A stretch of 64,000 nucleotides of DNA from Chloroflexota bacterium. Lineage in GTDB: Bacteria > Chloroflexota > Dehalococcoidia > JACQUO01. The stretch is taken from positions 3,788 through 67,787 of the forward strand of contig JACQUO010000023.1 of assembly GCA_016210205.1 (NCBI GenBank). Reading direction: 5' to 3'. Under the pieces are notes generated by a model. The model was given only the letters and a program-made list of their open reading frames with translations, made no database searches and was not told the origin of the DNA. Below are positions 6,245 to 50,026 of the stretch, piece after piece (the stretch's first letter is position 1; the number at the start of each line of letters is the position of its first letter). The position numbers and the translations under genes are program-made.

Positions 6245-6685
6245 TTATTCTTTTGGAGCCAAGAGTTCAAAATCATCTGGCTTGAGTTCAGTCTTTCGCA
6301 AGGGTTTCCTTCCAATCAAGTCTGAGCGTATAGATAACAAGAATTCGCCAGCGGCTTTTCCTCTTTCGTCCTCCTTATATGTGGTACCCTCACGCACTGT
6401 GGCAAGAAAATGGTAAGCTTTGCGGATTACTTCGTCTGGGCAATACATCCAGCACAAATTTAATTGATGAAGAAAATTCGCTCTCATTTGCTTGCTCGTT
6501 TGCGAATCCGCTTTCATGAGAGCCACTGTAAACCCTTGGAGGCTTGCTATCAATTCCGAATATCTTTGCTCCTTGCGCTTGTATTCTTCATCCAGTCGCT
6601 TGCTTCTCTCATTCAAGTACCAAACGCTTAATCCGACAACGGCTGTAAGAATCGCGCCAGCAAGAGGCCACAATGTTGTGTCCAC
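6245..6685 (-). CDS. hypothetical membrane-anchored protein (single N-terminal TM helix), low GC
   Basis: 146-aa ORF sitting in a ~45% GC patch inside an otherwise ~68% GC purC-purS operon. It has an N-terminal hydrophobic helix followed by a charged soluble domain. No recognisable family. Confidence 0.5.
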   Translation of the reverse strand: MDTTLWPLAGAILTAVVGLSVWYLNERSKRLDEEYKRKEQRYSELIASLQGFTVALMKADSQTSKQMRANFLHQLNLCWMYCPDEVIRKAYHFLATVREGTTYKEDERGKAAGEFLLSIRSDLIGRKPLRKTELKPDDFELLAPKE

Positions 6686-6709
6686 AGAAGTTCATTAAGG
6701 TTCCTTTCT

Positions 6710-7660
6710 TCACCCCAGCCCCTGCCCCGTCAGCCGGCGATACACCTCCCGGTAGCGGGCGGAGGTCTGCGCCACCACCTCCGGCGGCAGGGGGGGCGCC
6801 GGCGGCTCCCGGTCCCAGCCCGAGGCCACCAGCCAGTCCCGCACCGGCTGCTTGTCGTAGGAGGGCTGGGAGCGCCCCGGCGCATAGGCCGCCGCCTCCC
6901 AGAAGCGGGAGGAGTCCGGCGTCAGCAGCTCGTCGATGACCGCCATCTCCCCCCCGATGCGCCCGAACTCCAGCTTGGTGTCGGCGATGATGATGCCCTG
7001 CTTCAGGGCGTACTCGTGGGCGTAGGCGTAGAGGCCCAGGCTTTTCGCCTCCAGGGCGTGCGCCGTCGCCTCTCCCACCAGGCCCACAAGCTCCGCCGGG
7101 GTGATAGGCTGGTCGTGGCCGCTGTCGGCCTTGGTGGTGGGAGTGAAGAGGGGCTGGGGCAGCCGCTGGCTCTCCCGCAGCCCCGGCGGCAGGGCCTGGC
7201 CGGACACCGAGCCGCGCTTCCGGTACTCCTCCCAGGCGGAGCCGGCTAAATACCCTCGCACCACGCACTCCACCTCGATGCGCTCGGCCCGGCGCGCCAC
7301 CATGGCCCGGCCCGCCAGCAGCCCCAGCTTCCGCGGACTCAGGCCCGCCGCCGACAGGGCCTCAGCGCGGGCAGCCAGCCAGTCCCGGTCCACCAGGGCC
7401 ACGAAATGATTGGGCATCAGATGGGCTGTCCGCTGGAACCAGAAGGCGGAGAGCTGGGTGAGCACCCCGCCCTTGTGGGGGATGCCCGTGGGCAGGACGG
7501 CGTCGAAGGCGGAGATGCGGTCCGTGGCCACCATGAGGAGCAGGGGCGGGCCGGCGTCCGCGGGCAGCCACCGGCCCAGGTCGTAGATGTCCCGCACCTT
7601 GCCCCGATAGAAGAGGTGGGGCAGGTGGGTGTCCAGGAGGACGGGGGGGCTCGCCGTCAT
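6710..7660 (-). CDS. purC: phosphoribosylaminoimidazole-succinocarboxamide synthase (SAICAR synthetase)
   Basis: The sequence YRGKVRDIYDLG...MVATDRISAFD is typical of PurC. The 29-codon upstream extension in the ORF track is rejected; the likely start is the ATG at 7660. Confidence 0.85.
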   Translation of the reverse strand: MTASPPVLLDTHLPHLFYRGKVRDIYDLGRWLPADAGPPLLLMVATDRISAFDAVLPTGIPHKGGVLTQLSAFWFQRTAHLMPNHFVALVDRDWLAARAEALSAAGLSPRKLGLLAGRAMVARRAERIEVECVVRGYLAGSAWEEYRKRGSVSGQALPPGLRESQRLPQPLFTPTTKADSGHDQPITPAELVGLVGEATAHALEAKSLGLYAYAHEYALKQGIIIADTKLEFGRIGGEMAVIDELLTPDSSRFWEAAAYAPGRSQPSYDKQPVRDWLVASGWDREPPAPPLPPEVVAQTSARYREVYRRLTGQGLG

Positions 7661-7667
7661 GACCTCT

Positions 7668-8285
7668 TCATAGTGCCATGAGGCTCCACTCGCCGGGCCG
7701 CACCTGAACCATGAGGCGCAGGCCCGAGGCCGCCGTGGGGATGTCATAGACCACCCGCATCCGTTTGGTGCTGCTGGCTGCTATCCTCACCGCACCCGTA
7801 AAATAGGAGGGGGCCTCCTCTTTGCCGGGGAAGAAAACTTTATCGATGACGGGGCGATAGCTGTTTCCAGAGGAGTCCTCCAGGAGCACGTCGGCATCCA
7901 CCACGACCCTATCGGCCGTGCCGGGGTTGTCGATGGTCAGGGTGAGGACGGCGTAGTCACCCCGGTTGGGGGAGACGCTTCTCTGGCTGCCGCCGCTCTC
8001 TTCGAGGAGCGAGCCAACCCGGGTGGTGTTATTCACAGTCACCTGGATGGCCTTGGCCGCTGGAGTCGGCGCCACCGTAGCCGCCGCGGCGGGGACGGGA
8101 GTGGAGGTGGCCGCCGGAACAGGTGTGGGCGTGGTGATGGGGGCCGTAGTGGGCATAGGATAGGGGGTGTAGGTCGGATAGGGCGTGTAGGTGGGGTAGG
8201 GAGTGGGAGTGGGCTGGCTCCCGATGCTAAAATTGCAGCCCGCCAGCAGCAAGGGCATCCCCAGGGCCCAGGCCAGCCATCTCAT
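7668..8285 (-). CDS. lipoprotein with Pro/Thr-rich linker (DUF4352-like C-terminal domain)
   Basis: Signal peptide with a lipobox (LLAGC). A PYPTYTPYPTYTPYP repeat linker is followed by a beta-rich domain. Confidence 0.6.
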   Translation of the reverse strand: MRWLAWALGMPLLLAGCNFSIGSQPTPTPYPTYTPYPTYTPYPMPTTAPITTPTPVPAATSTPVPAAAATVAPTPAAKAIQVTVNNTTRVGSLLEESGGSQRSVSPNRGDYAVLTLTIDNPGTADRVVVDADVLLEDSSGNSYRPVIDKVFFPGKEEAPSYFTGAVRIAASSTKRMRVVYDIPTAASGLRLMVQVRPGEWSLMAL

Positions 8286-27279: not shown

Positions 27280-28122
27280 ATGCAGGGCGCAGGGAATGAC
27301 TTCGTGGTCATCGACGCCCGCGCCCGTGAGGAGGACTGGCCCCGCCTGGCCAAGGCCCTCTCCGACCGCCACTTCGGCGTGGGGGCCGACGGCCTCCTCT
27401 TGGTGTTGCCATCAGACAAGGCCGGCTTCCGCATGCGCATCTTCAACCCCGACGGCTCCGAGGCGGAGACCTGCGGCAACGGCCTGCGCTGCTTCGCCAA
27501 GTTCCTGGCAGACCGCGCCCTGGCCGGCGACGAGCAGACTATCGAGACTATCGCGGGCGTCGTCGCCGCCCGCATCCTGGACCGCCAGGGGAGCTACGCC
27601 CGCGTCCGCGTGAGCATGGGCGCACCGGAGCTGGCCATGGCCGTGCCCCGGCCCGGCTTCGGCGCTCGCGCGGGGGACGACCCCGGCGAGGCCAAGCCCC
27701 TGATTGACTACCCCCTGCGCACCACCGACTGGGAGTTCCCCGTCACCTGCCTGTCCGTGGGCAACCCCCACGCCGTCCTCTTCCTGGACGAGCCGGTGCA
27801 GTCCTTCCCGCTGGCGGAGATAGGCCCCGTGGTGGAGAACCACCCCTTCTTCCTGCCCGCCCGCACCAACTTTGAGGTGGTGAACCTGCTGGGCCCGGCC
27901 CAGCTCCAGGGGCGGGTGTGGGAGCGGGGCGCGGGCGAGACCCTGGCCTGCGGCAGCGGGGCTTGCGCCATGATGGCGGCGGCCCGCCTCCACGGCTATG
28001 TGGGCGACCGCGCCGATGTGCAGCTCCCCGGCGGCCTCCTCACGGTGGAGTGGGACGGCGCCGGCGAAATCTATCTCACCGGCCCCGCGGTGACGGTCTT
28101 CGAGGGACGATGGGTGGGGTAG
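27280..28122 (+). CDS. dapF: diaminopimelate epimerase
   Basis: GAGNDFVV and two catalytic Cys regions (ETCGNGLRC, ACGSGACA) are present. Confidence 0.9.
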   Translation: MQGAGNDFVVIDARAREEDWPRLAKALSDRHFGVGADGLLLVLPSDKAGFRMRIFNPDGSEAETCGNGLRCFAKFLADRALAGDEQTIETIAGVVAARILDRQGSYARVRVSMGAPELAMAVPRPGFGARAGDDPGEAKPLIDYPLRTTDWEFPVTCLSVGNPHAVLFLDEPVQSFPLAEIGPVVENHPFFLPARTNFEVVNLLGPAQLQGRVWERGAGETLACGSGACAMMAAARLHGYVGDRADVQLPGGLLTVEWDGAGEIYLTGPAVTVFEGRWVG

Positions 28123-28189
28123 GGGTGCAAATTTAAAGGAGCGCTTTACATATAGAAGCGGAGGGTTGTGTCTTAGAGGGAGGAATAGA

Positions 28190-29548
28190 ATGCCACAGCG
28201 AGAGGACAAATACGAGCAATGGGGGGAGTCCGAAGAAGAGGATAACATCATACTAAGTGTACCGCTAGAATATCGCGAGATCAAAGCACAGGAGACCAAA
28301 TTAACGGTAGAAGACTTATGGAACAAATACAAACAACGTTTATTAAACTTGGAGCCAGACTTTCAACGCCATTACGTTTGGGATTCAACTAGAGCGAGTA
28401 GATACATAGAGTCTTTATTATTACAATTCCCTACGCCACCAATTTTCCTGGCCGAGGAAAAAGATGGGACATTAATCGTCGTTGATGGGCACCAACGTCT
28501 GGAGACGCTATTCCGCTTTATGAAGCCTCTACTCAGCGGTCCCTCAACATCAAGTGGAGTACAACTTCCTTATGGCTCCTTATCTCCGCTCAATCTGACA
28601 GGTCTCGGAGTTTTAGGAGAGATGGAAGGCAAGGGGGTTGTGTCGCTTTCGGACGCTAACAGGAAGAAATTGTGGGATACGAAACTTACTGCTCTTATAC
28701 TTCCTCAGTCATTGCATCCCGAGGTGAAATATGCGCTATTCACGCGATTGAACCAAGGTTCAATGAGCCTAAATAACCAAGAGATCCGGAACTGTCTCTA
28801 TCGGGGAGCATACAACCAGTTAATCGCTCGACTTAGTGAAGGCACGCAGTTTCTGTCTCTCTGGGGCAAAAGCTACCCAGATAAAAGGATGAGGCATCGT
28901 GAACTGGTGCTACGTTTCTTTGCGTTCCTGCATCGGATAGGCAAGTATAAGACGCCGTTCAGAGCCTTTCTAGACCAGGAAATGGAAGATAATCGAGATC
29001 TAAGCCCAGAAGAACAGCAGCGATTTCAGCAGCAAATGGATGTTGCCATGCGCTGGGTCAGAAGGGTTTTCGGGGGGCAGGTGTTCAAGCAATTTCTGGT
29101 CGGGAATGCAGATGCTCCCGCTGGGCGCTGGGTAAACCGACGCTACGACCTTATCTATGATGTGGAAATGGTCGGGTTTGCTAACTATGGAGACTCGCTC
29201 GACAAATGGTGGGGCCAGGCTAGTGCAGAAGAGCAGACCCTATTAACCCGTGTCCTTAACCGCAATTTAGCAGGGATAATGACGGATCAAGGCTTCGTAG
29301 GCAGTATTAATCAGGGCACAACCCTACCAAGGACTGTCGAACTTCGGTTCGATATGTGGCTCAGAGAAGTGCGCCGTATCACTCGTGAACCGGAGAGAGC
29401 GCTTGAAGAAGGAAAGGAATTACTTCAAAGCTTAAGCCAATCTAATATCTGTCCTAGTTGTGGGCACCCCATTATGTTTGAAGATGCAACTCGGCGATAT
29501 ATTAGAGGAGGCCTCAAGGTGACCCATCGATTCTGTGGTAGAACATAA
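28190..29548 (+). CDS. DUF262 (GmrSD N-terminal / ParB-like NTPase) domain protein with C-terminal zinc ribbon
   Basis: DUF262 motifs are present: DFQRHYVWD, VVDGHQRLETL and LNQGSMSLNNQEIRN. The C-terminus carries CPSCGH...THRFCG. The gene sits in a ~45% GC patch with a GGGAGG RBS 7 nt upstream of the ATG at 28190. Confidence 0.75.
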   Translation: MPQREDKYEQWGESEEEDNIILSVPLEYREIKAQETKLTVEDLWNKYKQRLLNLEPDFQRHYVWDSTRASRYIESLLLQFPTPPIFLAEEKDGTLIVVDGHQRLETLFRFMKPLLSGPSTSSGVQLPYGSLSPLNLTGLGVLGEMEGKGVVSLSDANRKKLWDTKLTALILPQSLHPEVKYALFTRLNQGSMSLNNQEIRNCLYRGAYNQLIARLSEGTQFLSLWGKSYPDKRMRHRELVLRFFAFLHRIGKYKTPFRAFLDQEMEDNRDLSPEEQQRFQQQMDVAMRWVRRVFGGQVFKQFLVGNADAPAGRWVNRRYDLIYDVEMVGFANYGDSLDKWWGQASAEEQTLLTRVLNRNLAGIMTDQGFVGSINQGTTLPRTVELRFDMWLREVRRITREPERALEEGKELLQSLSQSNICPSCGHPIMFEDATRRYIRGGLKVTHRFCGRT

Positions 29549-29571: not shown

Positions 29572-30753
29572 ATGCGCCTGGCCAAACGGATTGAGAAGCT
29601 GCCGCCCTACCTCTTCGTGGAGATAACCAAGAAGATAGCCCAAAAGCGCGCCCAGGGCATCGATGTCATCACCTTCGCCATCGGCGACCCGGACCTCCCT
29701 ACGCCGGCTCATGTCATCGCCCGCCTCACCGCGGCCGCCCGCGACCCCGCCAACCACCGCTACCCCGAGTCCGACGGCCTCCCCGAGCTGCGGCGCGCCG
29801 TGGCCGGGTGGTACCAGCGGCGCTTCGGCCTGGCCTTCGACCCCGACAAGGAGGTGCTGCCCCTGATTGGCTCCAAGGAGGGCATCGGCCACATGGCCCT
29901 CTGCTTCATCGACCCCGGGGACATCGCCCTGGTGCCCGACCCGGGCTACCCCGTTTACTCCATCGGCACCATGTTCGCCGGCGGCGAGTCCCACTACCTG
30001 CCCTTGCGGGAGGAGAACGGCTTCCTCCCCGACCTGGACGCCATCCCCGCGGAGGTGGCGCGGCGGGCCAAGCTGCTCTGGCTCAACTACCCCAACAACC
30101 CTACCGCCGCCGTGGCGGACCTGGACTTCTTCCGGCGCGTGGTGGCCTTCGCCAAACGCTATGGCATCGCCGTATGCCACGACGGCCCCTACAGCGAGGT
30201 GGCCTATGACGGCTATAAGCCCGTGTCCTTCCTCCAGGCCGAGGGCGCTCGCGAGGTGGGGGTGGAGTTCCACTCCTGCTCCAAGTCCTTCAACATGACG
30301 GGGTGGCGCATCGGGTTTGTGGTGGGCAACGAGAAGATGGTCAACGCCCTGATGCGGGTCAAGTCCAACCTGGACTCGGGCATCCCCCAGGCCCTCCAGC
30401 AGGCCGCCATCGCGGCCCTGGAGGGGCCCCAGGACTGCATCCCGGAGCACAACGCCATCTACCAGCGGCGCCGGGACAAGGTGCAGGCGGCCCTGGCCAA
30501 GCTGGGTCTCAAGGTCTATCCCTCCAAGGCCAGCCTCTATGTCTGGGCCAGGGTGCCGGAGGGCTGCACCTCGGCGGAGTTCTGCGCCCAGCTCATCGAG
30601 GAGACGGCGGTGGTGGTGACCCCGGGGTCGGGCTACGGCCCGTCCGGCGAGGGCTACATCCGCCTGTCCCTGACCACCCCCGACGAGCGGGTGGAGGAGG
30701 GCCTCTCCCGTCTGGCGCAGTGGCGCCGCGGGGAGAAACTTCACATAAAGTAG
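29572..30753 (+). CDS. class I aminotransferase, LL-diaminopimelate aminotransferase (DapL)-like
   Basis: A fold-type I PLP enzyme with KLPPYLF at the N-terminus and a PLP lysine (SCSKSFNMTGWRIG). Adjacent to dapF. DapL cannot be distinguished from a general alanine/aspartate aminotransferase without a search. Confidence 0.6.
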   Translation: MRLAKRIEKLPPYLFVEITKKIAQKRAQGIDVITFAIGDPDLPTPAHVIARLTAAARDPANHRYPESDGLPELRRAVAGWYQRRFGLAFDPDKEVLPLIGSKEGIGHMALCFIDPGDIALVPDPGYPVYSIGTMFAGGESHYLPLREENGFLPDLDAIPAEVARRAKLLWLNYPNNPTAAVADLDFFRRVVAFAKRYGIAVCHDGPYSEVAYDGYKPVSFLQAEGAREVGVEFHSCSKSFNMTGWRIGFVVGNEKMVNALMRVKSNLDSGIPQALQQAAIAALEGPQDCIPEHNAIYQRRRDKVQAALAKLGLKVYPSKASLYVWARVPEGCTSAEFCAQLIEETAVVVTPGSGYGPSGEGYIRLSLTTPDERVEEGLSRLAQWRRGEKLHIK

Positions 30754-37539: not shown

Positions 37540-37551
37540 CTATCGTTGAGC

Positions 37552-38004
37552 ATGAATCCTAAAACTATCGCTATAAACCGCAAAGCCCACCACGACTACC
37601 ATCTCCAGGGGAGTTGGGAGGCGGGCTTGGTGCTCACGGGGACGGAGATTAAGTCCATCCGGTCCGCCAAGGTGAACATCCGGGATGCCTATGCCCAGGC
37701 GCAGGGCGGGGAGATGTGGCTGCATCAGGCCCACATCGCCCCATATGAAAAGGGCAACATCTATAACCACGCGCCGCTGCGACCGCGCAAGCTCCTTCTG
37801 CATAAGGCAGAGATTAGGGCCATGACCCAAAAGGCTGCCGAAAAGGGCCTGACCCTGGTGCCGAAAAGACTTTATGTAAAGAATGGCTATGCCAAGGTGG
37901 AGCTGGCTCTGGCCAAGGGCAAAAAGGCTTATGACCACCGCGAGGACATCGCCAAACGGGACGCCCGACGCTCCCTGGAGCGGGAGCTGGCGAGCCGGCG
38001 CTGA
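37552..38004 (+). CDS. smpB: SsrA-binding protein
   Basis: HHDYHLQGSWEAGLVLTGTEIKS is a SmpB signature. The ATG at 37552 is preferred over the upstream TTG. Confidence 0.9.
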   Translation: MNPKTIAINRKAHHDYHLQGSWEAGLVLTGTEIKSIRSAKVNIRDAYAQAQGGEMWLHQAHIAPYEKGNIYNHAPLRPRKLLLHKAEIRAMTQKAAEKGLTLVPKRLYVKNGYAKVELALAKGKKAYDHREDIAKRDARRSLERELASRR

Positions 38005-38019
38005 CCCTGCGGGATTGAG

Positions 38020-38378
38020 TTGAGCGTGGGGACGAGGGGTTCGACAGGGAAGGAGGTTACGAGATTGCAGGCCGAGGTGCCGTCACCCTCGATAATCAGG
38101 CGGCAAAATATAACTGGCGAACGTGAATTCGCACTAGCGGCCTAAAAGGCTGCTACGTCTGCCCCCGCCTCTCCTCCATGGGCAGGGAGCGGGCGACGTA
38201 ATGTGGAGGTGCTGTGGCCTTTACGCCCTTAAGGGCCGCCTAAGACCCAGGGGCTGGCCTCGGGAAGACTCGGCCGGTTGAGTCCCCCGGGGTGAGAGCT
38301 AAAAGCCGGAAAAGCCTGTAGCATATCTCGGACGGCCTTCTGCTGGACGGGGAGTTCGACTCTCCCCCGTCTCCACCA
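38020..38378 (+). ncRNA. ssrA: tmRNA (transfer-messenger RNA)
   Basis: The 5' GGGGACG pairs with the 3' CGUCUCC-ACCA to form the acceptor stem. A T-arm-like GGAGTTCGACTCTCC is present. The in-frame tag reading frame ...GGC GAA CGT GAA TTC GCA CTA GCG GCC TAA encodes GEREFALAA*. The gene lies 15 nt downstream of smpB. Confidence 0.85.
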
Positions 38379-38502
38379 CAACAAATCCGGGGCGATTAAG
38401 GTATGGTCGCCTCGAACTCCCGCCTTGGCGCAAATAATGCTATACTTAAGGGCGGCGGCTGGCCCCTCAGGGGCCAATTTTTGCGCTCCGCTTAAGGTGA
38501 CG

Positions 38503-40335
38503 ATGCCACAAGACCTCAGGAATATCGCCATTATCGCCCACGTGGACCACGGCAAGACCACCCTGGTGGATGCCTTGCTCAAGCAGAGCCATGTCTTCCG
38601 CGCCAATCAACAGGTGGGGGAATTCATCATGGACAGCAATCCCCTGGAGAGAGAGCGCGGCATTACTATCCTGGCCAAGAACACCGCCATCACCTATAAG
38701 GGCGTTAAAATCAATATCATAGACACCCCGGGCCATGCTGACTTCAGCGGAGAAGTGGAGCGCGTTCTCAACATGGCCGATGGCTGTCTCCTGGTGGTGG
38801 ACGCCGTAGACGGGCCGATGCCGCAGACGCGCTATGTGTTGAAGAAGGCCCTGGCCACCGGGCTCAAGCCAGTGGTGGTCATCAACAAAGTGGATAGGCC
38901 CAGCGCCCGAGCCAAGGAAGTAGTGAGCCTGGTCCAGGACCTGTTCCTCGAGCTGGCCACAGATGCCGAACAGCTGAATTTTCCCATCCTTTATGCCTCG
39001 GCGCGCCTGGGGTATGCCGTGACCGACCTCAGCGCCGAGCCGCGGGACATGGAGCCCCTCTTCGAGGCCATCCTGCACCAAGTGCCCCCACCATCCGGCG
39101 ATGGAGCAGCACCACTTCAGCTCCTGGTCACTGCCCTGGATTACGATAACCACCTAGGCCAAATTGCCATTGGGCGCATTTCCCGCGGTTCTCTTGCCTC
39201 TGGCGAGCCCGTGGTGCGCATAAATCGGGAGGGGCAGCAATCTCCCTACAAAGTCGAGCGCCTCTATGTCTTTCAAGGCTTGGAGCGACAGGAAGTGCCG
39301 CAGGCGCCGGCCGGGGAGATAGTGGCCATAGCCGGGGTTGAGCAGGTGTCCATTGGCGACACCATCGCCTCCGCGCAATATCCCGAGGCTCTGCCCCCTA
39401 TTATTATCGATGAGCCGACCGTCAGGATTACCCTGGGGGTCAACACCTCGCCCTTTGCAGGGCGTGAGGGTCAGTCCAGCATGTCCCGGCAGCTTTACGC
39501 CCGGCTGGTGCGGGAGCTCCAGACCAACGTCAGCCTCCGCGTCCAGCAGACAGACTCCCCGGACGAGTTCCAGGTGTCTGGCCGCGGCGAGCTCCATCTG
39601 GCCATCCTTATCGAGACCATGCGGCGGGAAGGTTACGAGTTCCAGGTGTCCAAACCAGAGGCGGTGCTCAAAGAGAGGGCTGGCGTCATCCTGGAGCCCT
39701 ACGAGATGCTCATGATGGACACACGGGAGGACTTTGTCGGCCCCCTTACAGAGAATCTGGCGCCGCGCCTGGCCAAAATGACGGACATGCGGTATGACGG
39801 CCGGGGGAGCGTCCATCTGGAGTTCCAACTCCCTACCCGAGGGCTCATTGGGTTCAACAGCTACTTTTTACGCGTTACTCGCGGCAACGGGGTGATGAAC
39901 AGCCAGCTCCTGGACTATGCGCCCTTTCAGGGGGAGGTCCGCTCAACCCGTAACGGCGCCCTGGTAGCCTCTGAGACAGGAGTGGCCGTAACCTACGGCC
40001 TGAATAACGCTCAGGGCCGTGGCGACACCTTTGTGGAGCCAGGGACACCAGTCTACGAGGGGATGATTGTGGGTCTCCACGCTCGCGACGATGACTTGGT
40101 GGTCAACATCTGTAAAGAGAAAAAACAGACCAACACGCGGTCATCCACGGCGGACATAGCCATCCGTCTAACCCCTGCCGTCGTCATGAGTCTGGAGGAG
40201 TGCCTGGACTTCATCAACCCCGATGAGATGGTAGAGGTCACCCCCAAGAGCCTGCGCCTGCGCAAGAAGGTCCTCACCAGCGACGAGCGGCATCGGCTCA
40301 ACCGAGAACAAGCCCGGGCCCTGGCAGGACGGTAG
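38503..40335 (+). CDS. typA: translational GTPase TypA/BipA
   Basis: The sequence [19 protein letters not shown]...DTPGHADF and EF-G-like domains are present. The ATG at 38503 is preferred. Confidence 0.9.
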
Positions 40336-40511: not shown

Positions 40512-40832
40512 ATGAGCTATCAGGACAGAAATCTGACCTGCCAGGAATGTGGAAAGCAGTTTGTGTATTCGGCCGATGACCAGTCGTTCCACGCCCTTAA
40601 GGGTTACACAAACGAGCCCAAGCGATGCCCCTCTTGCCGCCAAGCTCGGCGCGAGGGAAGCGGAAGCTCCTCGCGGGGAAGTTACCCCCGCACAGAGCAG
40701 CGCGAGATGTTTCCAGCGGTATGCGCTTCATGTGGCAAAGAAACCACAGTGCCCTTCCGGCCCAAGGGTGACCGGCCGGTGTACTGCAGCGATTGCTTCA
40801 GACGCCAGCCCGCCCGCTCTGGCCGGTACTAA
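40512..40832 (+). CDS. zinc-ribbon protein with two CxxCGK...(Y/R)CxxC modules
   Basis: Two CxxCGK...CxxC modules are present. An AAGGAGGT RBS precedes the gene. Confidence 0.6.
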   Translation: MSYQDRNLTCQECGKQFVYSADDQSFHALKGYTNEPKRCPSCRQARREGSGSSSRGSYPRTEQREMFPAVCASCGKETTVPFRPKGDRPVYCSDCFRRQPARSGRY

Positions 40833-43157: not shown

Positions 43158-43985
43158 ATGCCTTCTAAAATCAACTTCGCGCTCCTGGACCAGCCCCACA
43201 TCCTGGCCTCCGCTTTCTACCCCCGGCGGGAGTGGAGCGACCCACCCCCGGGAACAAGTGACTATATGATTCCCGTGGCTGGGGGTTCCCCAGATATCGC
43301 CGTCCATGCCCGCCTCTACCCCGCCGAGGCCGGCGGCAGCGCCCCCACCATCCTCTACTTTCATGGCAATGGCGAGGTGGTCAGCGACTACGACTTCGTC
43401 TCCCCTTTTTACAGCGGCCTGGGCCTCAACCTCTGCGTGGCGGACTTCCGCGGCTACGGCAAGAGCGGCGGCGGCCCCTCCTTCTCCGCCCTCAACGGGG
43501 ATGCCCATCCCATCTTCCGCTATCTGATGGCAAAGCGCCGGGAGTGGGGGCACACCGGCCTCCTCTTCGTCATGGGGCGCTCTATGGGAGCCCAGCCCGC
43601 CCTGGAGCTGGCCTCCAGCTACCCCGATGAGCTGAAGGGCCTTATCGTGGAGAGCGGCCTCTCCGACCCCTCCCGCATGGCCACCCGCCTCGCCCCTTAC
43701 ACCGACACGGCGGCCCTGGAGGAGTTCGTTCGGGCCAGCCAGGAGCGCCTCCGCTCCGTGCGGCTGCCGCTGCTGGCCATCCACGGCGACTGGGATGAAA
43801 TCATCCCCTACGATAGGGCAGTGCAGTTCTTCTCCCAGGTAGGCTCGGAGGACAAGCGCTTCGTCACCATCCACGGGGCGGGCCACAATGACTTGTTGCT
43901 GCGGGGCCTGGATGAATACCTGGGGGCCATCCGGGAATTCGTCTTTGGAGGCAGTGGGAAGCTCCCTTCAGGGCAGAGAGGTTAG
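43158..43985 (+). CDS. alpha/beta hydrolase
   Basis: A nucleophile elbow (GRSMG) with later HG and D residues. 275 aa. Confidence 0.65.
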   Translation: MPSKINFALLDQPHILASAFYPRREWSDPPPGTSDYMIPVAGGSPDIAVHARLYPAEAGGSAPTILYFHGNGEVVSDYDFVSPFYSGLGLNLCVADFRGYGKSGGGPSFSALNGDAHPIFRYLMAKRREWGHTGLLFVMGRSMGAQPALELASSYPDELKGLIVESGLSDPSRMATRLAPYTDTAALEEFVRASQERLRSVRLPLLAIHGDWDEIIPYDRAVQFFSQVGSEDKRFVTIHGAGHNDLLLRGLDEYLGAIREFVFGGSGKLPSGQRG

Positions 43986-43991
43986 CGGGCT

Positions 43992-45236
43992 TTGATTCGC
44001 CTGCTCCACCTGGCCGACCTGCACCTGGGCCTTGAGACCCACGGCCATCCCGACCCGGCCACCGGCCTCTCCACCCGCTTGGTGGACTTTCTAGCCGCCC
44101 TTGACCAGGTGGTGGAGTATGCTCTGGCCCAAGATGTCCACCTCTGCCTCTTCTGCGGCGACGCCTACAAGGGCCGCGACCCCAGCCAGACCCAGCAGCG
44201 GGAGTTCGCCCGTCGCGTCCAGCGCCTGGCCGCCGGCGGCGTGGCCGTTTTCCTGGTGGCCGGCAACCACGACCTGCCCCACGCCTTCGGGCGGGCCACC
44301 GCGGTGGAGATTTTCCAGACCCTGACCATCCCCGGGGTGACCGTGGCCAACAAGCCAGGCGTCCATCGGCTGGAGACCAGGGGCGGCGCCCTGCAAATCA
44401 TCGCCCTCCCCTGGGCCCGGCGCAGCCACTACCTCACCCGGGACGAGAGCAAGGGTCTCACCCCCCAGGAAATCGACCGGCGGATGGAGTCAGTCCTGAC
44501 CAAATGGTTCGAGGAGGAGCGAGACCGCCTGGACCCGGCCCTGCCCTCGGTGCTAGCGGCCCACCTGTGGGTGAACACCGCCAGGGCCGGCTCGGAGGGG
44601 GCCATCATGGAGGGACAGGGCCCTGTGTTTCTCCAGAGCGTCTTGGCCCGGCCACCCCTCGACTACGGGGCCTTGGGGCATATCCACCGCCAGCAGGTCT
44701 TGTCCTTAGCGCCGCCCCTGGTCTATGCAGGGAGCCTCCAGGCCCTGGACTTCAGCGATGAGGGCCAAGAGAAGGGCTTCTATGTGGTGGAGCTAGACGC
44801 CTCTCGCCCCCCTGGGCTGCGGGCGGCCTCCCTGGAGTTCCACCGGCTCGAGACCCGCCCCTTCCTGACCATCGAGGTTGACGCCACCGCCAGCCCCGAC
44901 CCCACGCAAACCGCCCTGGAAGCCATAAGCCGACACCCTGTCAGCGGGGCCATCGTCCGTCTCAAGGTGAAGGTGACTGCCCCCCAGAGGCGCTCCCTCC
45001 GGGAGGTGGAGCTCCGCCGGGCCCTGCAAGAGGCCCACCATGTGGCGGCTATGGCGGTGGAGGTGACGGGCCAAAAGCGTGGCCGCCTCCCCCTGCTCCC
45101 GGGCCTGGCCCCCACAGAGGCCCTGCGCCGCTATCTAGAGGCCAAGCGGCCTCCCCTGCAGCCCGAGGAGCTGGCACGGCTGATGGAATATGGGGAGCGC
45201 CTCATCGCCGACACCCTCACCACCCCTAATCCTTGA
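43992..45236 (+). CDS. sbcD: DNA repair exonuclease SbcD (Mre11 family)
   Basis: Calcineurin-like phosphoesterase motifs are present (LHLADLHLG, GDAYKG, GNHD). TTG start. Confidence 0.85.
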   Translation: MIRLLHLADLHLGLETHGHPDPATGLSTRLVDFLAALDQVVEYALAQDVHLCLFCGDAYKGRDPSQTQQREFARRVQRLAAGGVAVFLVAGNHDLPHAFGRATAVEIFQTLTIPGVTVANKPGVHRLETRGGALQIIALPWARRSHYLTRDESKGLTPQEIDRRMESVLTKWFEEERDRLDPALPSVLAAHLWVNTARAGSEGAIMEGQGPVFLQSVLARPPLDYGALGHIHRQQVLSLAPPLVYAGSLQALDFSDEGQEKGFYVVELDASRPPGLRAASLEFHRLETRPFLTIEVDATASPDPTQTALEAISRHPVSGAIVRLKVKVTAPQRRSLREVELRRALQEAHHVAAMAVEVTGQKRGRLPLLPGLAPTEALRRYLEAKRPPLQPEELARLMEYGERLIADTLTTPNP

Positions 45237-45237
45237 T

Positions 45238-46812
45238 ATGATAGCTCTGACCTGCTATGGGGGTGTGGGCGAAATCGGGGGCAACAAGCTGCTCCTGGAG
45301 GACGGCGAGAGCCGTCTCTTCTTCGACTTCGGCACGAGCTACGGGCAGCGCTACCGCTACTTCGAGGAGTATCTCAAGCCCCGCACCGGCGCCGGCCTCC
45401 TGGACTATCTGGAGATGGGCTTGCTGCCTCCCCTGCGCGGCCTCTATCGAGAAGACCTCATCCCCAGCGGCCAGCGCGGCCTTCCAGGCGAGGCCGCCTT
45501 TTGGCAGACTTTCTCGGCCTCGCCTGCCTACCGGGACCTCCAGGGTCAAGAAATCCACGGGGTGCTCCTCTCTCACGCCCACCTGGACCACAGCGGAGCC
45601 ATCTCCTTCCTGCGGGGCGACATCCCTGTTTACACCACCCTCACCACCGCCTTCACCGCCAAGGCCATCCAGGACACAGGCAAGTCCTCCGACCTGGACG
45701 GCGAGATATGCTACTTCAGCCGCCGCTCTCTGGAAGGGGATTACCTGTCCCCAGAGCGAGGCTCCGGCTACCAGGGACGGCCGTTCGTCATCGTCGGTGG
45801 CCAGGCGCCCAGCCCTGAGGCCGCTCTGTTCTGGAGACAGTCCCCCTCCACCAAGGCGCTGCACCTCGACCGCGCCCAGCTTCCCGCGAATCAGATAGGT
45901 CGCCTGCCCCTGCGGGCCTTCCCCCTGGACCATTCCGTCCTGGGGGCGGCGGGCTACGCCGTGGAGACCAGCCAGGGGTGGGTGGCCTACAGCGGCGACC
46001 TCCGTCTCCACGGGGCCCGGGGCCAGCGCTCGCGGGACTTCGCCGCCGGCCTAGCGGCGCTGCGGCCCCTGGCCTTCCTCTGCGAGGGCACGCGGGCCGG
46101 GGAAGGCCCCGGCGTCACCGAGGAGGAGGCCTTCCGCAGCTGCCTGGCCGCGGCCAGGGAAGCCAAAGGCATGGTAGTGGCCGACTTCGGCGCCCGCAAT
46201 GTAGAGCGCCTCTTCTCCTTTGCGGCCATCGCGGCGGAGACCAAGCGCCGGCTGGTCATCACCCCCCGGGATGCCTATCTGCTGGAGGCCCTCTACCTCG
46301 CGGAGCCGGAGCTGCCCGGCTTGTGGGGGGATGTCCTCATCTACCAGGAGCGCCGCGGCAAGCGGGACAAGTGGGAGAAAGGGCTTTGGGAGCGTCACGC
46401 GGGACGGGCCATCAGGGCGGAGGACATGAGGGGTGACCTGGGCCGCTTCATCCTCTGCTTCTCCTTCTGGGATGTGAACGAGCTCATCGACCTGGCCCCC
46501 CGCGGCGGCGCCTACATCTACTCCTCCACCGAGGCCCACAACGAGGAGCAAGCGCTGGACCTGAGGCGGCTGGAGAACTGGGTGGGGCACTTCGGCCTGG
46601 CGCTCCGGGGCCATCCGGAGCGGGAGCGGGGCTTCCACGCCTCCGGCCATGCCAGCGGCGAGGAGCTTCTGGCCCTTATACGACAGGTGCGGCCCCACTA
46701 CCTGGTGCCTATCCACACCGAGCATCCCGAATACTTCGCCGCCGGGCTTGCGGGCACGGGGATAGAGGTGTCGCCGCCGGAGTATGGACGGCGGCTGGCG
46801 TTTGGGGGATAA
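45238..46812 (+). CDS. metallo-beta-lactamase fold beta-CASP nuclease, RNase J-like
   Basis: An RNase J-like N-terminus (YGGVGEIGGNKLLLE), an HxHxDH motif (HAHLDHSGA), beta-CASP motif B (FPLDHS) and a C-terminal HASGHA...PIHTEH are present. The start is 1 nt after the sbcD stop. Confidence 0.75.
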   Translation: MIALTCYGGVGEIGGNKLLLEDGESRLFFDFGTSYGQRYRYFEEYLKPRTGAGLLDYLEMGLLPPLRGLYREDLIPSGQRGLPGEAAFWQTFSASPAYRDLQGQEIHGVLLSHAHLDHSGAISFLRGDIPVYTTLTTAFTAKAIQDTGKSSDLDGEICYFSRRSLEGDYLSPERGSGYQGRPFVIVGGQAPSPEAALFWRQSPSTKALHLDRAQLPANQIGRLPLRAFPLDHSVLGAAGYAVETSQGWVAYSGDLRLHGARGQRSRDFAAGLAALRPLAFLCEGTRAGEGPGVTEEEAFRSCLAAAREAKGMVVADFGARNVERLFSFAAIAAETKRRLVITPRDAYLLEALYLAEPELPGLWGDVLIYQERRGKRDKWEKGLWERHAGRAIRAEDMRGDLGRFILCFSFWDVNELIDLAPRGGAYIYSSTEAHNEEQALDLRRLENWVGHFGLALRGHPERERGFHASGHASGEELLALIRQVRPHYLVPIHTEHPEYFAAGLAGTGIEVSPPEYGRRLAFGG

Positions 46813-46910
46813 TGGGCGAAAGTCTGGGAGGAAGCGAGGTCATCTTATGAGCTTGCCCAAGCAACGGCTTTTGCCCACAAGCTAACCTCTAGCCTGCATA
46901 GGTCCGCTCT

Positions 46911-49475
46911 GTGCTGCCTCTGAAGCTCACCCTCCACAACTTCATGTGCTACGGGGAGGATGTCCCCCCCCTCTCCTTCGAGGGCATCCCCCTGGCCTGC
47001 CTCTGCGGGGACAACGGCCACGGCAAGTCCGCCCTCCTGGACGCCATCACCTGGGCCCTGTGGGGCCGCGCCCGCGCCCCGGACGACGCCCTGGTCAACT
47101 ACGGCCGCCAGGAGATGACCGTGGCCCTGGAGTTCGCCGTGGGCCCTAACCGCTACCGAGCGCTGCGGGGCCACCAGCGTCCCCGAGGGGCCAAAGGCTC
47201 CGGCAAGTCCTGGCTGGAGCTCCAGGCCCGGGCCGACGGCGACTACCGGGCCCTCTCCGGCGCCAGCCTCCGAGAGACCCAGGAGCAGATAAACCGCCTC
47301 CTCCACCTGGACTACGAGACCTTCGTCAACAGCGCCTTCCTGCGCCAGGGGCGAGCCGACGCCTTCTCCACCAAGACCCCGGGGGAGCGCAAGGCTCTCT
47401 TGGGGGAGATACTGGGGCTTTCTTCCTACGATGAGCTGGAGCAGCAAGCCCGGGGGCTGTCCCGGGAGCGGGAGGCGGAGGCGGCAAGCTTGACGAAAGC
47501 CCTGGAGGCCCTGGAGACCGAGGTGTCCCAGGAAGAGACGCTGACCGAGGAGCAGCGCCAAATCCGCACAGCCCTGGCGGAGGTGGAGGCCTACATCGAG
47601 ATGCAGGAGTTGGCCATGGAGGACCTGCGCGAGCACATCCAGGACCACCTGCACCAGCAGTCCCTCCTGCAGGAGTCCCGACGCCGGCTCACTCAGGCGG
47701 AAAACGAGATGAAGCGGCTCCAGGCCCAGATAGAGGACTGGCAGAGGCAAATCGCCACTTTTCAGGCCGCCCTGGCCGCCCGAGACGAGGTGGAGGCCGG
47801 ATATAGCCGCCTCCTGGCCCTCCGGCAGGAGAACGAGGCGCAAAACCGGGCCCTGGCCCAACTGCGCCGCTGGGAGCTCCAGCGGGGCGAGCTGGAGCTG
47901 GCCCTGGCCCAGGCCCGGGCCGCGCTGGACAAAGAGCAGGCGGTGCTTGAGGCCAACCTGAGGCGCCTCCAGGCCCAGGCGGGGCGGCGCCCTCAACTGG
48001 AGCAAGACCTGGCCCAGGCCAGGGAACGCGAGCAGGGGCTCCTGACCCTTGAAGGCCACCTGCAAGAACGCCGCCAGGCTTTAGCAACCATGGAGGCCAG
48101 CGTCCAGGGGCTGCGCCTCACTAACGCCCAACTCAAGGAGGAGATGCTCGGACTGAAGCAAAAAGTGGACATGCTCAAGGACGGCGATGCCCTCTGCCCC
48201 CTCTGCGGCACCGAGCTGGGCCTCTCCGGTCAAGAGCACATCCGCCGCGAGTACCAGTCCCAGGGAGAGGGGAAAAGAGACCTCTTCCGCGCCAACGAAG
48301 GCGAGTTGACCCGCCTGGAGAAAGAGGCCGTAGACAACACCCGCCTGCTCCAGGCCGAGCAGGCTCGCTTCCTCCAGGAGAGCGCCGGGGGCCAGGCCCA
48401 AGTCCAAACCCTGCAGCGCCAGTTGGAGGAAGCGCATACGGCTGATGAAGAGGCCCAACAGGCCCAAGAGCGAATGGCCAAACTCCAGAGCACCATCGCA
48501 GGAGAGGACTTTGCCCACCAGCAACGGGCTGAACTGGCGCAAGTGCGCGGAGAGATGGCCCGCCTGGCCTACCACCCCGAGGCCCACCAACGGCTGGGCC
48601 AAGACCTGGCCGCCCACGAGGCCTTCGAGCCGCGGCGCCAGGAGCTGGCCCAGGCCGAGGCCTCTCTGGAGCGGAGAATTGAAGGGCTGGAGCAAGCCCA
48701 GACCGCCCTCAGGCAGTGGGAGGAAATCCAGCGGGCCGAGTCCCAGCGCATCACGACCATTGAGCCCGTGCTGGCCGTCATCCCCACCCTCCAGGCGGAC
48801 CTGGAGGGCGCCCAGGGCGCCCTGCGCCAGATGCAGGAGCAGCGCGGCCTCGGACAGAGGGACCTGGGGGCCGTCCAGGAGAAGATGGCTCGCCTCGCTG
48901 CGGCCAAGGAGGATAAGGCCCAAAAAGCCGCTGCTTTAGCCCAGGCGCGTGAGGAAGGGCAGGCCTACCAGGAACTGGCCCGAGCCTTCGGCAAGGACGG
49001 CATCCAGGCCCTCATCATCGAGGCGGCCCTGCCCGAGCTAGAGGAGGAGGCCAACAGGCTCCTGGCTCGCCTGACCGACAACCGCATGCACCTCAAGCTG
49101 GAGACGCAGCGCCTCACCCGCAAGGGAGAGGCTGCCGAGACCCTTCAGATACACATCTCCGACGAGCTGGGCACCCGCCCCTATGAGACCTTCAGCGGCG
49201 GCGAGGCCTTCCGCATCAACTTCGCCCTCCGGGTGGCCCTCTCCCGGCTCCTGGCCCGGCGGGCCGGGGCCCCCCTGCCCACGCTGTTCATCGACGAAGG
49301 GTTCGGCACCCAGGACGCCGCCGGCCGCGAGCGCCTCGTCGAGGCCATCAACGCCATCGCCCCGGACTTCGAGCGCATCATCGTCATCACCCATATGGAG
49401 GAAATAAAGGAGGCCTTCCCCGTCCGTATTGAGGTGTTCAAGGACGAGAAAGGCTGCCGGGTGACGATCACCTAA
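46911..49475 (+). CDS. sbcC: DNA repair ATPase SbcC (Rad50/SMC family)
   Basis: An N-terminal Walker A (GDNGHGKSALLDAITWALWG), a coiled coil with a zinc hook (CPLCG), and a C-terminal signature/Walker B (FSGGEAFRINFALRVAL...LFIDEGFG) are present. GTG start. Confidence 0.85.
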   Translation: MLPLKLTLHNFMCYGEDVPPLSFEGIPLACLCGDNGHGKSALLDAITWALWGRARAPDDALVNYGRQEMTVALEFAVGPNRYRALRGHQRPRGAKGSGKSWLELQARADGDYRALSGASLRETQEQINRLLHLDYETFVNSAFLRQGRADAFSTKTPGERKALLGEILGLSSYDELEQQARGLSREREAEAASLTKALEALETEVSQEETLTEEQRQIRTALAEVEAYIEMQELAMEDLREHIQDHLHQQSLLQESRRRLTQAENEMKRLQAQIEDWQRQIATFQAALAARDEVEAGYSRLLALRQENEAQNRALAQLRRWELQRGELELALAQARAALDKEQAVLEANLRRLQAQAGRRPQLEQDLAQAREREQGLLTLEGHLQERRQALATMEASVQGLRLTNAQLKEEMLGLKQKVDMLKDGDALCPLCGTELGLSGQEHIRREYQSQGEGKRDLFRANEGELTRLEKEAVDNTRLLQAEQARFLQESAGGQAQVQTLQRQLEEAHTADEEAQQAQERMAKLQSTIAGEDFAHQQRAELAQVRGEMARLAYHPEAHQRLGQDLAAHEAFEPRRQELAQAEASLERRIEGLEQAQTALRQWEEIQRAESQRITTIEPVLAVIPTLQADLEGAQGALRQMQEQRGLGQRDLGAVQEKMARLAAAKEDKAQKAAALAQAREEGQAYQELARAFGKDGIQALIIEAALPELEEEANRLLARLTDNRMHLKLETQRLTRKGEAAETLQIHISDELGTRPYETFSGGEAFRINFALRVALSRLLARRAGAPLPTLFIDEGFGTQDAAGRERLVEAINAIAPDFERIIVITHMEEIKEAFPVRIEVFKDEKGCRVTIT

Positions 49476-50026
49476 AGGCCCAGGTCCCCGCCGATGCCCT
49501 GCATGGCAGCCAGCCCCAGGGCGACGAACTCCTCCAGGTCCAGGCCCAGCACCGAGCAGAGGGCGATTTGCTCGCGGCTGGCCCCGGCGGCGAAGCGCTT
49601 TTCCTTGAATCGCTTGAGCACCGACTGGGCCTCCACCCCCGCCAGCCTTTTGTCGGGCCGCACCAGAGCGGCGGCAGTGATGAGCCCGGTGAGGGGGTCG
49701 GCGCAGAAGAGGGCCTGGTCCAGGAGGGTCTCCCGTCCGTGTCCGTGGGTCTCATTGTGGCGCAGGATGGCGGCGGCCATCTCCGCGGTGGCCCCCATCT
49801 CCCGGGCCAGGGCGGCGCCCTCACGGCTGTGGCGCGTCATGTCCCCTCCCGTGGCCTCCACATCAATGTCGTGGAGCAGGCCCACCAGGCCCCAGGTAGC
49901 CTCATCCTGGCCCAGACGGCGGGCCAGGCCCCTCATAATCGCCTCGGTAGCCAGCATATGCTTCACCAAGTTGTCGTTCTGCACCCTCGCCCGGATGGCG
50001 GCCAGGGCCGCGGCGCGGTCAATCAT
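49472..50026 (-). CDS. HD-domain phosphohydrolase
   Basis: An HD motif (LLHDID) and a downstream His/Asp are present. 184 aa. Confidence 0.7.
   Translation of the reverse strand: MIDRAAALAAIRARVQNDNLVKHMLATEAIMRGLARRLGQDEATWGLVGLLHDIDVEATGGDMTRHSREGAALAREMGATAEMAAAILRHNETHGHGRETLLDQALFCADPLTGLITAAALVRPDKRLAGVEAQSVLKRFKEKRFAAGASREQIALCSVLGLDLEEFVALGLAAMQGIGGDLGL

Follow-up and report, generated by a model that had tools for sequence, protein, structure and literature searches.

An RNase J-like beta-CASP nuclease gene flanked by sbcD and sbcC in a Chloroflexota bacterium, and its recurrent linkage to sbcD, sbcC and RmuC

Results

We analyzed a 64,000-nucleotide stretch of contig JACQUO010000023.1 from a Chloroflexota bacterium (assembly GCA_016210205.1; this whole stretch is called the window) and found a gene for a metallo-beta-lactamase (MBL) fold nuclease between sbcD and sbcC. 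The three genes lie head to tail on the plus strand, as seen in the table of open reading frames (ORFs) and in the translations. Sequence and model comparisons indicate that the encoded protein, referred to here as the MBL protein, belongs to the RNase J-like branch of the beta-CASP nucleases and is neither a canonical RNase J nor a relative of SNM1/Artemis. Its family is an uncharacterized, RNase J-like subfamily whose genes are repeatedly, though not obligatorily, linked to those of SbcCD and RmuC. We tentatively favor the reading, which we hold to be nearly as likely to be right as wrong, that the protein is an RNase J-like 5'-end-dependent nuclease that is made together with SbcCD and acts on nucleic-acid ends. 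Gene order, tight spacing, motif conservation, the fold and the recurrent linkage to sbcD, sbcC or RmuC were the observations behind this reading.

Organization of the locus

The sbcD gene (43992-45236, plus strand) encodes a 414-aa Mre11-type phosphoesterase; the ORF has a TTG start, the N-terminus LIRLLHLADLHLG and a TGA stop at 45234-45236. SbcD scored 139.8 bits against TIGR00619 (cutoff 77.65) and matched Metallophos at 1.1e-10, and the nuclease motifs DLH, GDAYK, GNHD and GHIH were intact in the translation. It was 100% identical to MBI4216564.1, which NCBI names 'exonuclease SbcCD subunit D [Chloroflexi bacterium]'. The MBL gene (45238-46812, plus strand; Pfam Lactamase_B_2 and RMMBL) starts with an ATG at 45238, 1 nt past the sbcD TGA, a spacing consistent with coupling. 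An earlier interpretation of this DNA made from the letters alone (the sequence-only reading) had described the same layout, including the 1-nt gap and a 98-nt gap before sbcC, and our coordinates agreed with it throughout; the length of 525 aa that it gave holds for the ORF span, while the protein itself has 524 aa, encoded by 524 codons plus a stop. An upstream ATG at 45190 found no homologue support as the start, and the homologue consensus begins MxxITCYGGV. The protein is deposited at NCBI as MBI4216565.1 under the name 'exonuclease', and this entry and that of SbcD stem from one 252-kb contig of a Chloroflexi MAG.

The third gene, sbcC (46911-49475, plus strand, GTG start), encodes an 854-aa Rad50-type ATPase that matched AAA_23 (2e-20), SbcC_Walker_B and Rad50_zn_hook in Pfam. 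Its score against TIGR00618 was 297.9 bits, under the cutoff of 478.5 for that model, and the translation contained a Walker A motif (GDNGHGKS), a zinc hook (CPLC, nt 48195-48206), a signature motif (SGGEAF) and a Walker B motif (LFIDEGF). The 98-nt spacer between the MBL gene and sbcC (46813-46910, plus strand) was aligned with that of a closely related locus (L171; L numbers are our handles for loci), whose MBL protein is 96% identical to that of the window and whose spacer measures 30 nt. The difference is a strain-specific insertion of 68 nt (~46834-46901) that is present in single copy within the window. No structured element or repeat was detected in the spacer, its fold z-score of -1.4 being not significant and the insertion being unique in the window.

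No terminator-like site was seen between sbcD, the MBL gene and sbcC, and a weak sigma-70-like match (9/12 positions) at 46785-46813 overlaps the MBL stop. Downstream, a convergent HD-domain gene (49472-50026, minus strand; Pfam HD 8.6e-10) overlaps the sbcC stop by 4 nt and is the 3' boundary of the sbcD-MBL-sbcC transcription unit. The order sbcD-MBL-sbcC-HD was the same in L171, and the cluster had a native G+C content (0.67-0.69). The MBL gene is thus predicted to be made from one transcription unit with sbcD and sbcC, which supports the operonic arrangement that the sequence-only reading had proposed.

Conserved motifs and predicted structure

We examined the MBL protein in an alignment of 27 family sequences. 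The MBL motif residues H113, H115, D117, H118, H232 and D254 were invariant in the 27 homologues and D30 of MBL motif 1 was at least 90% conserved. The beta-CASP motifs A (E283), B (H467) and C (H493) were likewise invariant, and so were E283-G284-T285 and S469-G470-H471. All five motifs that had been quoted in favor of a beta-CASP assignment were present in the translation, namely GGVGEIGGN (aa 8-16), HAHLDHSGA (aa 113-121), FPLDHS (aa 228-233), HASGHA (aa 467-472) and PIHTEH (aa 491-496). The absence of beta-CASP motifs on profile alignment, named earlier as a result that would overturn the assignment, is therefore excluded. MBL motif 2 (HAHLDH, aa 113-118), which supplies metal ligands, is encoded at 45574-45591 and motifs B and C, located by alignment and HMMER, at 46636-46725, both on the plus strand. 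HMMER aligned this B/C segment to 'HVSGHA...PVHGE' of RNase J and, similarly, GGVGEIGGN to the N-terminal segment of RNase J. The HxSGH motif-B segment of RNase J lines the 5'-phosphate pocket. In Pfam, Lactamase_B_2 and Lactamase_B scored over their cutoffs and RMMBL reached 34.8 bits against a cutoff of 21.6.

An AlphaFold2 model of the MBL protein, built from the 27-sequence alignment, had a predicted local distance difference test (pLDDT) score of 88.1 and a predicted template-modelling (pTM) score of 0.91. It consisted of the MBL and beta-CASP domains only, with a C-terminus that extends 31 residues past motif C. The secondary structure of the model, together with its fit to RNase J and 2az4 on superposition, placed the beta-CASP insertion domain approximately at aa ~262-460 (46021-46617, plus strand), including the motif A residue E283 in CEGT. 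The MBL domain itself contains a family-specific insert at aa 33-105 (45334-45552, plus strand) with the pattern YFEEYLKPRxGAGLLDxLExGLLPPLxGxYRxDL in the 27-sequence alignment, within which E44, P48, R49, G53, L54, D56, P64 and G68 were invariant. The insert is partly common to EF2904 (the profile search paired it with residues 8-123 of EF2904) and is absent from RNase J. Judged by its residues, the middle protein of the cluster is predicted to be a catalytically competent two-metal phosphodiesterase.

Relation to RNase J, EF2904 and SNM1/Artemis

Against the RNase J models the MBL protein scored 64 bits for TIGR00649 (cutoff 400) and 53 bits for NF047419, the RnjA model (cutoff 820). A profile search of the PDB placed 2az4 (EF2904) first with 130.8 bits (E 5.7e-37), while the best RNase J reached 80 bits and IntS11 45 bits; CPSF73 was matched as well. 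Foldseek against the PDB gave a corresponding order. The top match of the AlphaFold2 model was again 2az4, with a target-normalized TM-score of 0.79-0.80, and archaeal and bacterial RNase J followed (TM-score 0.53-0.73, E ~1e-21 to 1e-19) and then CPSF73 and IntS11. The model superposed on RNase J, CPSF73 and 2az4 with a probability of 1.00, and the query-normalized TM-scores against RNase J chains of ~550 aa were 0.56-0.61. The invariant catalytic motifs and the match of the model to both 2az4 and RNase J bear out the earlier beta-CASP, RNase J-like call. Since the score of 64 bits falls so far below the cutoff of 400 and the RNase J C-terminal domain is missing, the protein is not a canonical RNase J; the Chloroflexota-wide subfamily that it represents falls between RNase J and the uncharacterized EF2904.

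The sequence-only reading had also drawn an analogy with Artemis/SNM1, and the corresponding explanation would make the protein an Artemis/SNM1-like hairpin-opening or crosslink-repair nuclease in a machine of the MRN-plus-Artemis type. The common beta-CASP superfamily with its catalytic motifs and the position next to SbcCD, a hairpin processor, would fit such a role. However, the PDB profile matches with E<=1e-3 and the 50 best Foldseek matches included no SNM1, Apollo or Artemis chain. In a scheme said to go back to Callebaut in 2002, a His at motif C is the RNA-type beta-CASP state and a Val marks the DNA-specific branch; motif C of the MBL protein is His, not Val. Moreover, SbcCD is reported to open hairpins unaided (PMC4787754). 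We consider this explanation very improbable, and as a statement of kinship the analogy was not upheld.

Distribution and gene neighborhoods of the family

Of 8,000 candidates scored in a protein search, 2,591 were relatives at E<=1e-5, and those with a named source came from Chloroflexota, Dehalococcoidia or Anaerolineae. With each GTDB species represented by a single genome, relatives were detected in at least 398 species genomes, nearly all of them Chloroflexota. Complete Chloroflexota chromosomes such as OY969814.1, OZ242272.1 and OZ244798.1 are among the carriers. The databases name family members 'exonuclease', 'MBL fold ... RNA specificity domain-containing protein' or, at JGI and in some NCBI records, 'ribonuclease J'. 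Of the 398, 80 loci were kept for neighborhood analysis and searched for SbcD, SbcC and RmuC with hidden Markov models (HMMs). One of the three adjoined the MBL gene at 23 of the 80 loci: the arrangements sbcD-MBL-sbcC, sbcD-MBL or MBL-sbcC accounted for 16 species-level loci and MBL-RmuC for 7 more. The arrangement, for which a survey had been suggested earlier, is therefore recurrent, and it was found in at least three deep clades.

The linkage was also close in distance. sbcC lay within 600 bp downstream of the MBL gene at 12 of 73 evaluable loci, with a gap of -4 to +55 nt where it was the very next gene, and sbcD within 1 kb upstream at 7/59 evaluable loci. RmuC (PF02646, 174.6 bits) followed the MBL gene directly at 7/73 loci with gaps of 6-29 nt. 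In a Pfam census of 132 immediate neighbors of MBL genes from 73 Chloroflexota loci, SbcC (AAA_23) ranked first with 8 loci, followed by H+-PPase (7 loci), RmuC in third place (6 loci), and SbcD (Metallophos) and TtuA with 5 loci each, SbcD being joint fourth; dCTP deaminase was counted at 4 loci and thymidine kinase at 3. In a neighbor-joining tree of the family, loci linked to sbcCD were spread over at least three deep clades and mingled there with unlinked ones; those linked to RmuC grouped in a further clade. The MBL proteins of the sbcCD-linked deep clades were ~45-55% identical to the window protein. Where the trio was split, the MBL gene kept sbcD (L002, L003 and L005) or sbcC (L019, L020, L043, L074 and others).

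Several further neighbors were noted. A DUF2130 gene followed the MBL gene directly at three loci (L007 7601-8848, L021 7586-8848 and L022 7228-8421); its product has a coiled coil and a C-terminal domain, scored 231-247 bits in the two cases that were scored singly, and occupies the slot that SbcC or RmuC takes in other clades. A profile comparison of RmuC with DUF2130 was not significant (probability 0.7%), and the weak alignment spanned residues that in our reading resemble a PD-(D/E)XK core. The idea that the two are interchangeable related downstream nucleases was set aside as unproven on this probability. At seven loci (L006 1786-2424, L010 2116-2754, L007 5337-5984 and four others), a gene upstream of the MBL gene, directly so at six of them, encoded a conserved protein of ~215 aa that has a transmembrane helix at its N-terminus and matched nothing in Pfam. 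In L006 and L010 this gene separates sbcD from the MBL gene, and its product may be a fourth component confined to certain lineages. Single loci had a gene for a DrmD-like SNF2 helicase, for a type III Res-like helicase or for a YhcG nuclease beside the MBL gene; these were left uncounted as probable defense-island coincidences.

sbcC and sbcD loci in Chloroflexota

We also viewed the linkage from the side of its partners. The metagenomic sbcC loci (L081-L160) were mostly solitary, often with dnaG-rpoD upstream, a convergent HD gene downstream and uvrA beyond. At 37 of these 80 loci, one of the first three ORFs called downstream of sbcC (+1 to +3) was a convergent homologue of the ~183-aa HD gene, and L171 has one too; the HD gene is thus a conserved neighbor of sbcC in Chloroflexota. 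Only one of 55 evaluable Chloroflexota-type metagenomic sbcC loci had sbcD nearby. The eight sbcD loci comprised two with sbcD-MBL-sbcC, one with sbcD-sbcC, one with a GT87 glycosyltransferase gene between the two, and four solitary ones. In the locus with GT87 (L161), the glycosyltransferase gene at 6292-7725 stands in the slot of the MBL gene, within the block H+-PPase, tRNA synthetase, sbcD, GT87, sbcC. These counts do not agree with the earlier premise that sbcD normally adjoins sbcC, nor with its corollary that the MBL gene was inserted into an obligate sbcDC pair, given that the pair is commonly split in Chloroflexota and that GT87 can also intervene.

Other features of the window

An alpha/beta-hydrolase gene (43158-43985, plus strand; Pfam Hydrolase_4 9.4e-21) ends 6 nt upstream of the sbcD start, bounds the unit on that side and may be co-transcribed with sbcD. 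Its adjacency is not conserved: such a gene was found at only 1 of 80 related loci, and there ~5 kb off.

Elsewhere in the window, a 460-aa ORF (28166-29548, plus strand) had a low G+C content of 0.535 against ~0.66-0.70 in its flanks and lies between a putative dapF (27280-28122) and a putative aminotransferase gene (29572-30753). It scored 86.7 bits for Pfam GmrSD_N and 249.9 bits for PADLOC NsnA, and is probably a horizontally acquired defense or restriction gene. The smpB gene (37546-38004, plus strand; Pfam SmpB 195 bits) is directly followed by a tmRNA gene (38028-38378, plus strand; Rfam 142 bits) with the tag peptide GEREFALAA, the sole RNA gene found in the window. A 106-aa protein with two treble-clef zinc-finger domains (zf_Tbcl and zf_Tbcl_2) is encoded at 40512-40832 on the plus strand, after a TypA/BipA GTPase gene (38425-40335).

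Discussion

The reading that we tentatively favor, an RNase J-like 5'-end-dependent nuclease working alongside SbcCD, would divide the labor as follows. SbcCD would open hairpins or clip blocked ends, and the beta-CASP enzyme would then either digest a strand 5'->3', starting where it carries the 5' phosphate, or trim flaps. The 5'-phosphate would be handled by an RNase J-type pocket, and the enzyme would bring a 5'->3' polarity that SbcCD does not offer. We infer this polarity, as we do a DNA substrate, or DNA together with RNA, and a possible physical interaction with SbcCD. Bacterial SbcCD is usually seen as a self-contained two-subunit nuclease, with later 5'->3' resection credited to RecBCD, AddAB or RecJ. 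The MBL gene, for its part, repeatedly adjoins two distinct systems, SbcCD and RmuC, that deal with DNA hairpins or inverted repeats. Cleavage of both cruciforms and hairpins is reported for SbcCD (PMC4787754, PMC6265447), and RmuC, a predicted PD-(D/E)XK nuclease, keeps inversions at short inverted repeats in check (PMC1189080).

For RNase J-type enzymes in DNA metabolism, the precedents point both ways. In Haloferax volcanii, the RecJ3/4-aRNase J complex acts on RNA and single-stranded DNA and matters for DNA-damage survival (PMC10470531), and the DNase activity of Deinococcus RNase J is disputed (PMC6300522). A more ambitious version of our reading would make SbcD, the beta-CASP enzyme and SbcC a three-component Chloroflexota machine for DNA-end resection, in which a DNA-directed RNase J offshoot supplies 5'-phosphate-dependent 5'->3' degradation and pairs elsewhere with RmuC or DUF2130; such a machine would correspond, in bacteria, to Mre11-Rad50-NurA/HerA or to MRN-Exo1. 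We think this version rather unlikely as it stands; a three-component machine is a reasonable hypothesis, not a finding.

Several observations weigh against the reading of a nuclease that works with SbcCD at nucleic-acid ends. His493 at motif C and the match of the C-terminus to the RMMBL 'RNA specificity domain' are RNA-type states. About 70% of the family loci are without SbcC, SbcD or RmuC and have housekeeping neighbors (H+-PPase, tRNA synthetase, TtuA). Seen from the partners, the MBL gene was upstream of sbcC at only 2/55 evaluable Chloroflexota-type metagenomic loci and linked at only two of the eight sbcD loci; with sbcC mostly solitary, the idea of an obligate partner is weakened. A shared and apparently ancestral block of H+-PPase, class II tRNA synthetase and sbcD-MBL-sbcC was present at several loci and has decayed differently from lineage to lineage, so that part of the recurrence may reflect inheritance and not selection. 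No fusion of the MBL protein to SbcC or SbcD was seen. EF2904-like genes of Enterococcus, Erysipelothrix and Romboutsia (L168, L169 and L170) lie, in all three cases, inside an ABC-transporter (ATP-binding cassette) operon, which lends no support to DNA repair as the role of that clade. Literature searches on beta-CASP with SbcC/SbcD, on EF2904/2AZ4 and on Chloroflexi/Dehalococcoides RNase J found, in the library searched, no paper on a beta-CASP gene within sbcDC or on the subfamily, and no biochemistry for any subfamily member.

The main rival explanation is a housekeeping nuclease for RNA decay or maturation, the functional RNase J of Chloroflexota, whose place between sbcD and sbcC would be a functionally meaningless remnant of ancestral gene order. 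This explanation is a serious possibility, although we lean against it. It is favored by His493, the RMMBL match, the RNase J-like N-terminus and the 'ribonuclease J' labels in JGI and some NCBI records, by a family that is phylum-wide and mostly found amid housekeeping genes, and by the frequent separation of sbcD and sbcC, with an unrelated GT87 gene between both in L161. A second RNase J-like gene was not found with the family HMM in the window and ~1.6 Mb of Chloroflexota loci, but these cover less than one genome-equivalent and the result is hence uninformative. What argues against the housekeeping role is, in the first place, the RNase J score of 64 bits against a 400-bit cutoff together with the missing C-terminal domain. 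Furthermore, EF2904, the nearest relative with a solved structure, is from E. faecalis, a species that also has RNase J1/J2, which suggests that EF2904 is a paralogue of RNase J and not its replacement. Finally, drift alone would not predict SbcC, SbcD and RmuC as neighbors with operon-like spacing in different clades, along with DUF2130.

The EF2904-like loci point to another explanation, a phosphodiesterase that would act on small or oligomeric phosphodiesters and serve nucleotide or oligonucleotide scavenging. The operon of L168-L170 has the order ABC_tran, two BPD_transp_1, MBL gene and SBP_bac_1, followed in 2/3 by a Metallophos/5'-nucleotidase gene, and suggests uptake or scavenging of a phosphodiester substrate by EF2904-like proteins. 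Thymidine kinase (3 loci) and dCTP deaminase (4 loci) among the neighbors of the MBL gene would be in keeping with such a role. However, the identity to EF2904 is ~20% by structural alignment, the RNase J-type N-terminal and motif-B segments are kept, and no ABC-transporter context was detected in Chloroflexota, either in the gene-neighborhood clustering or among the families listed in the neighbor census of 73 loci. We therefore regard scavenging as improbable. Because the EF2904 clade stands in an ABC-transporter context, function is not transferable from the nearest solved structure in either direction.

The pairing of an SMC/Rad50-like sensor with nuclease effectors also recalls anti-phage systems of the Lamassu or Gabija type. 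SbcC matched PADLOC LmuB with 93 bits, a generic match, the MBL gene stands beside DrmD-like or type III Res-like helicases at single loci, and defense systems are reported to co-opt RmuC domains (PMC10270631). SbcC nevertheless fits the SbcC model far better, with 298 bits, neither SbcD nor the MBL protein matched any PADLOC model, and the housekeeping gene order is conserved with a native G+C content of 0.67-0.69. The defense reading, which we find hardly credible, was dropped on the PADLOC results.

If a working association with SbcCD is confirmed, a large and poorly studied phylum would possess an unrecognized partner for resection or hairpin clean-up, and the RNase J branch of beta-CASP proteins would have been adopted for work on DNA separately from the SNM1/Artemis branch of eukaryotes. 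Thousands of family proteins that carry generic labels gain a concrete functional hypothesis from the context data. If the link is inherited gene order only, the result is an ordinary refinement of annotation.

Among known systems, the SNM1/PSO2/Artemis nucleases share the superfamily and the two-metal mechanism with the MBL protein, but it shows no specific sequence or fold affinity to them and its motif C is His instead of Val. In the SNM1 type, a 5'-phosphate pocket confers exonuclease activity (PMC8450094), a logic that the MBL protein would share. The likeness to RNase J is wider and includes the MBL plus beta-CASP architecture, the seven catalytic motifs, the GGxGEIGGN N-terminus, the HxSGHA segment and the His at motif C. 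Archaeal RNase J is likewise without the C-terminal domain, whereas bacterial RNase J carries one for dimerization. The differences are an identity of ~14-18% in structural alignment, the conserved 70-aa insert (aa 33-105) and further insertions at aa ~140-215 of the MBL protein. We know of no case in which rnj is recurrently operonic with sbcD, sbcC or rmuC, unlike the MBL family.

EF2904, a structural-genomics protein of E. faecalis, is the best PDB match by both profile and fold, has part of the N-terminal insert (LxxxxLxPxLxxLY) and also lacks a C-terminal domain. It differs by being ~95 aa shorter, by its low identity and by having SGILTIGGT instead of GGVGEIGGN, and its orthologues belong to an ABC-transporter operon with 5'-nucleotidase and no DNA-repair genes.

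The RecJ3/4-aRNase J complex offers a parallel in which an RNase J-family enzyme is tied to dedicated DNA-repair-type nucleases (PMC10470531). Its partners are RecJ-like and not SbcCD, it was found biochemically and not by operon, and the aRNase J there is essential and canonical (PMC10470531). For the cluster as a whole, our working analogy is the archaeal Mre11-Rad50-NurA-HerA system, in which an Mre11/Rad50-type pair is likewise joined by an extra nuclease of a different fold, one that could supply 5'->3' polarity. Here the extra nuclease is of the beta-CASP type and not NurA, there is no HerA-like helicase, and the linkage is facultative (16/80 loci). Bacteria and eukaryotes, in which Mre11-Rad50 is paired with a 5'->3' resection nuclease of its own, provide the same working analogy.

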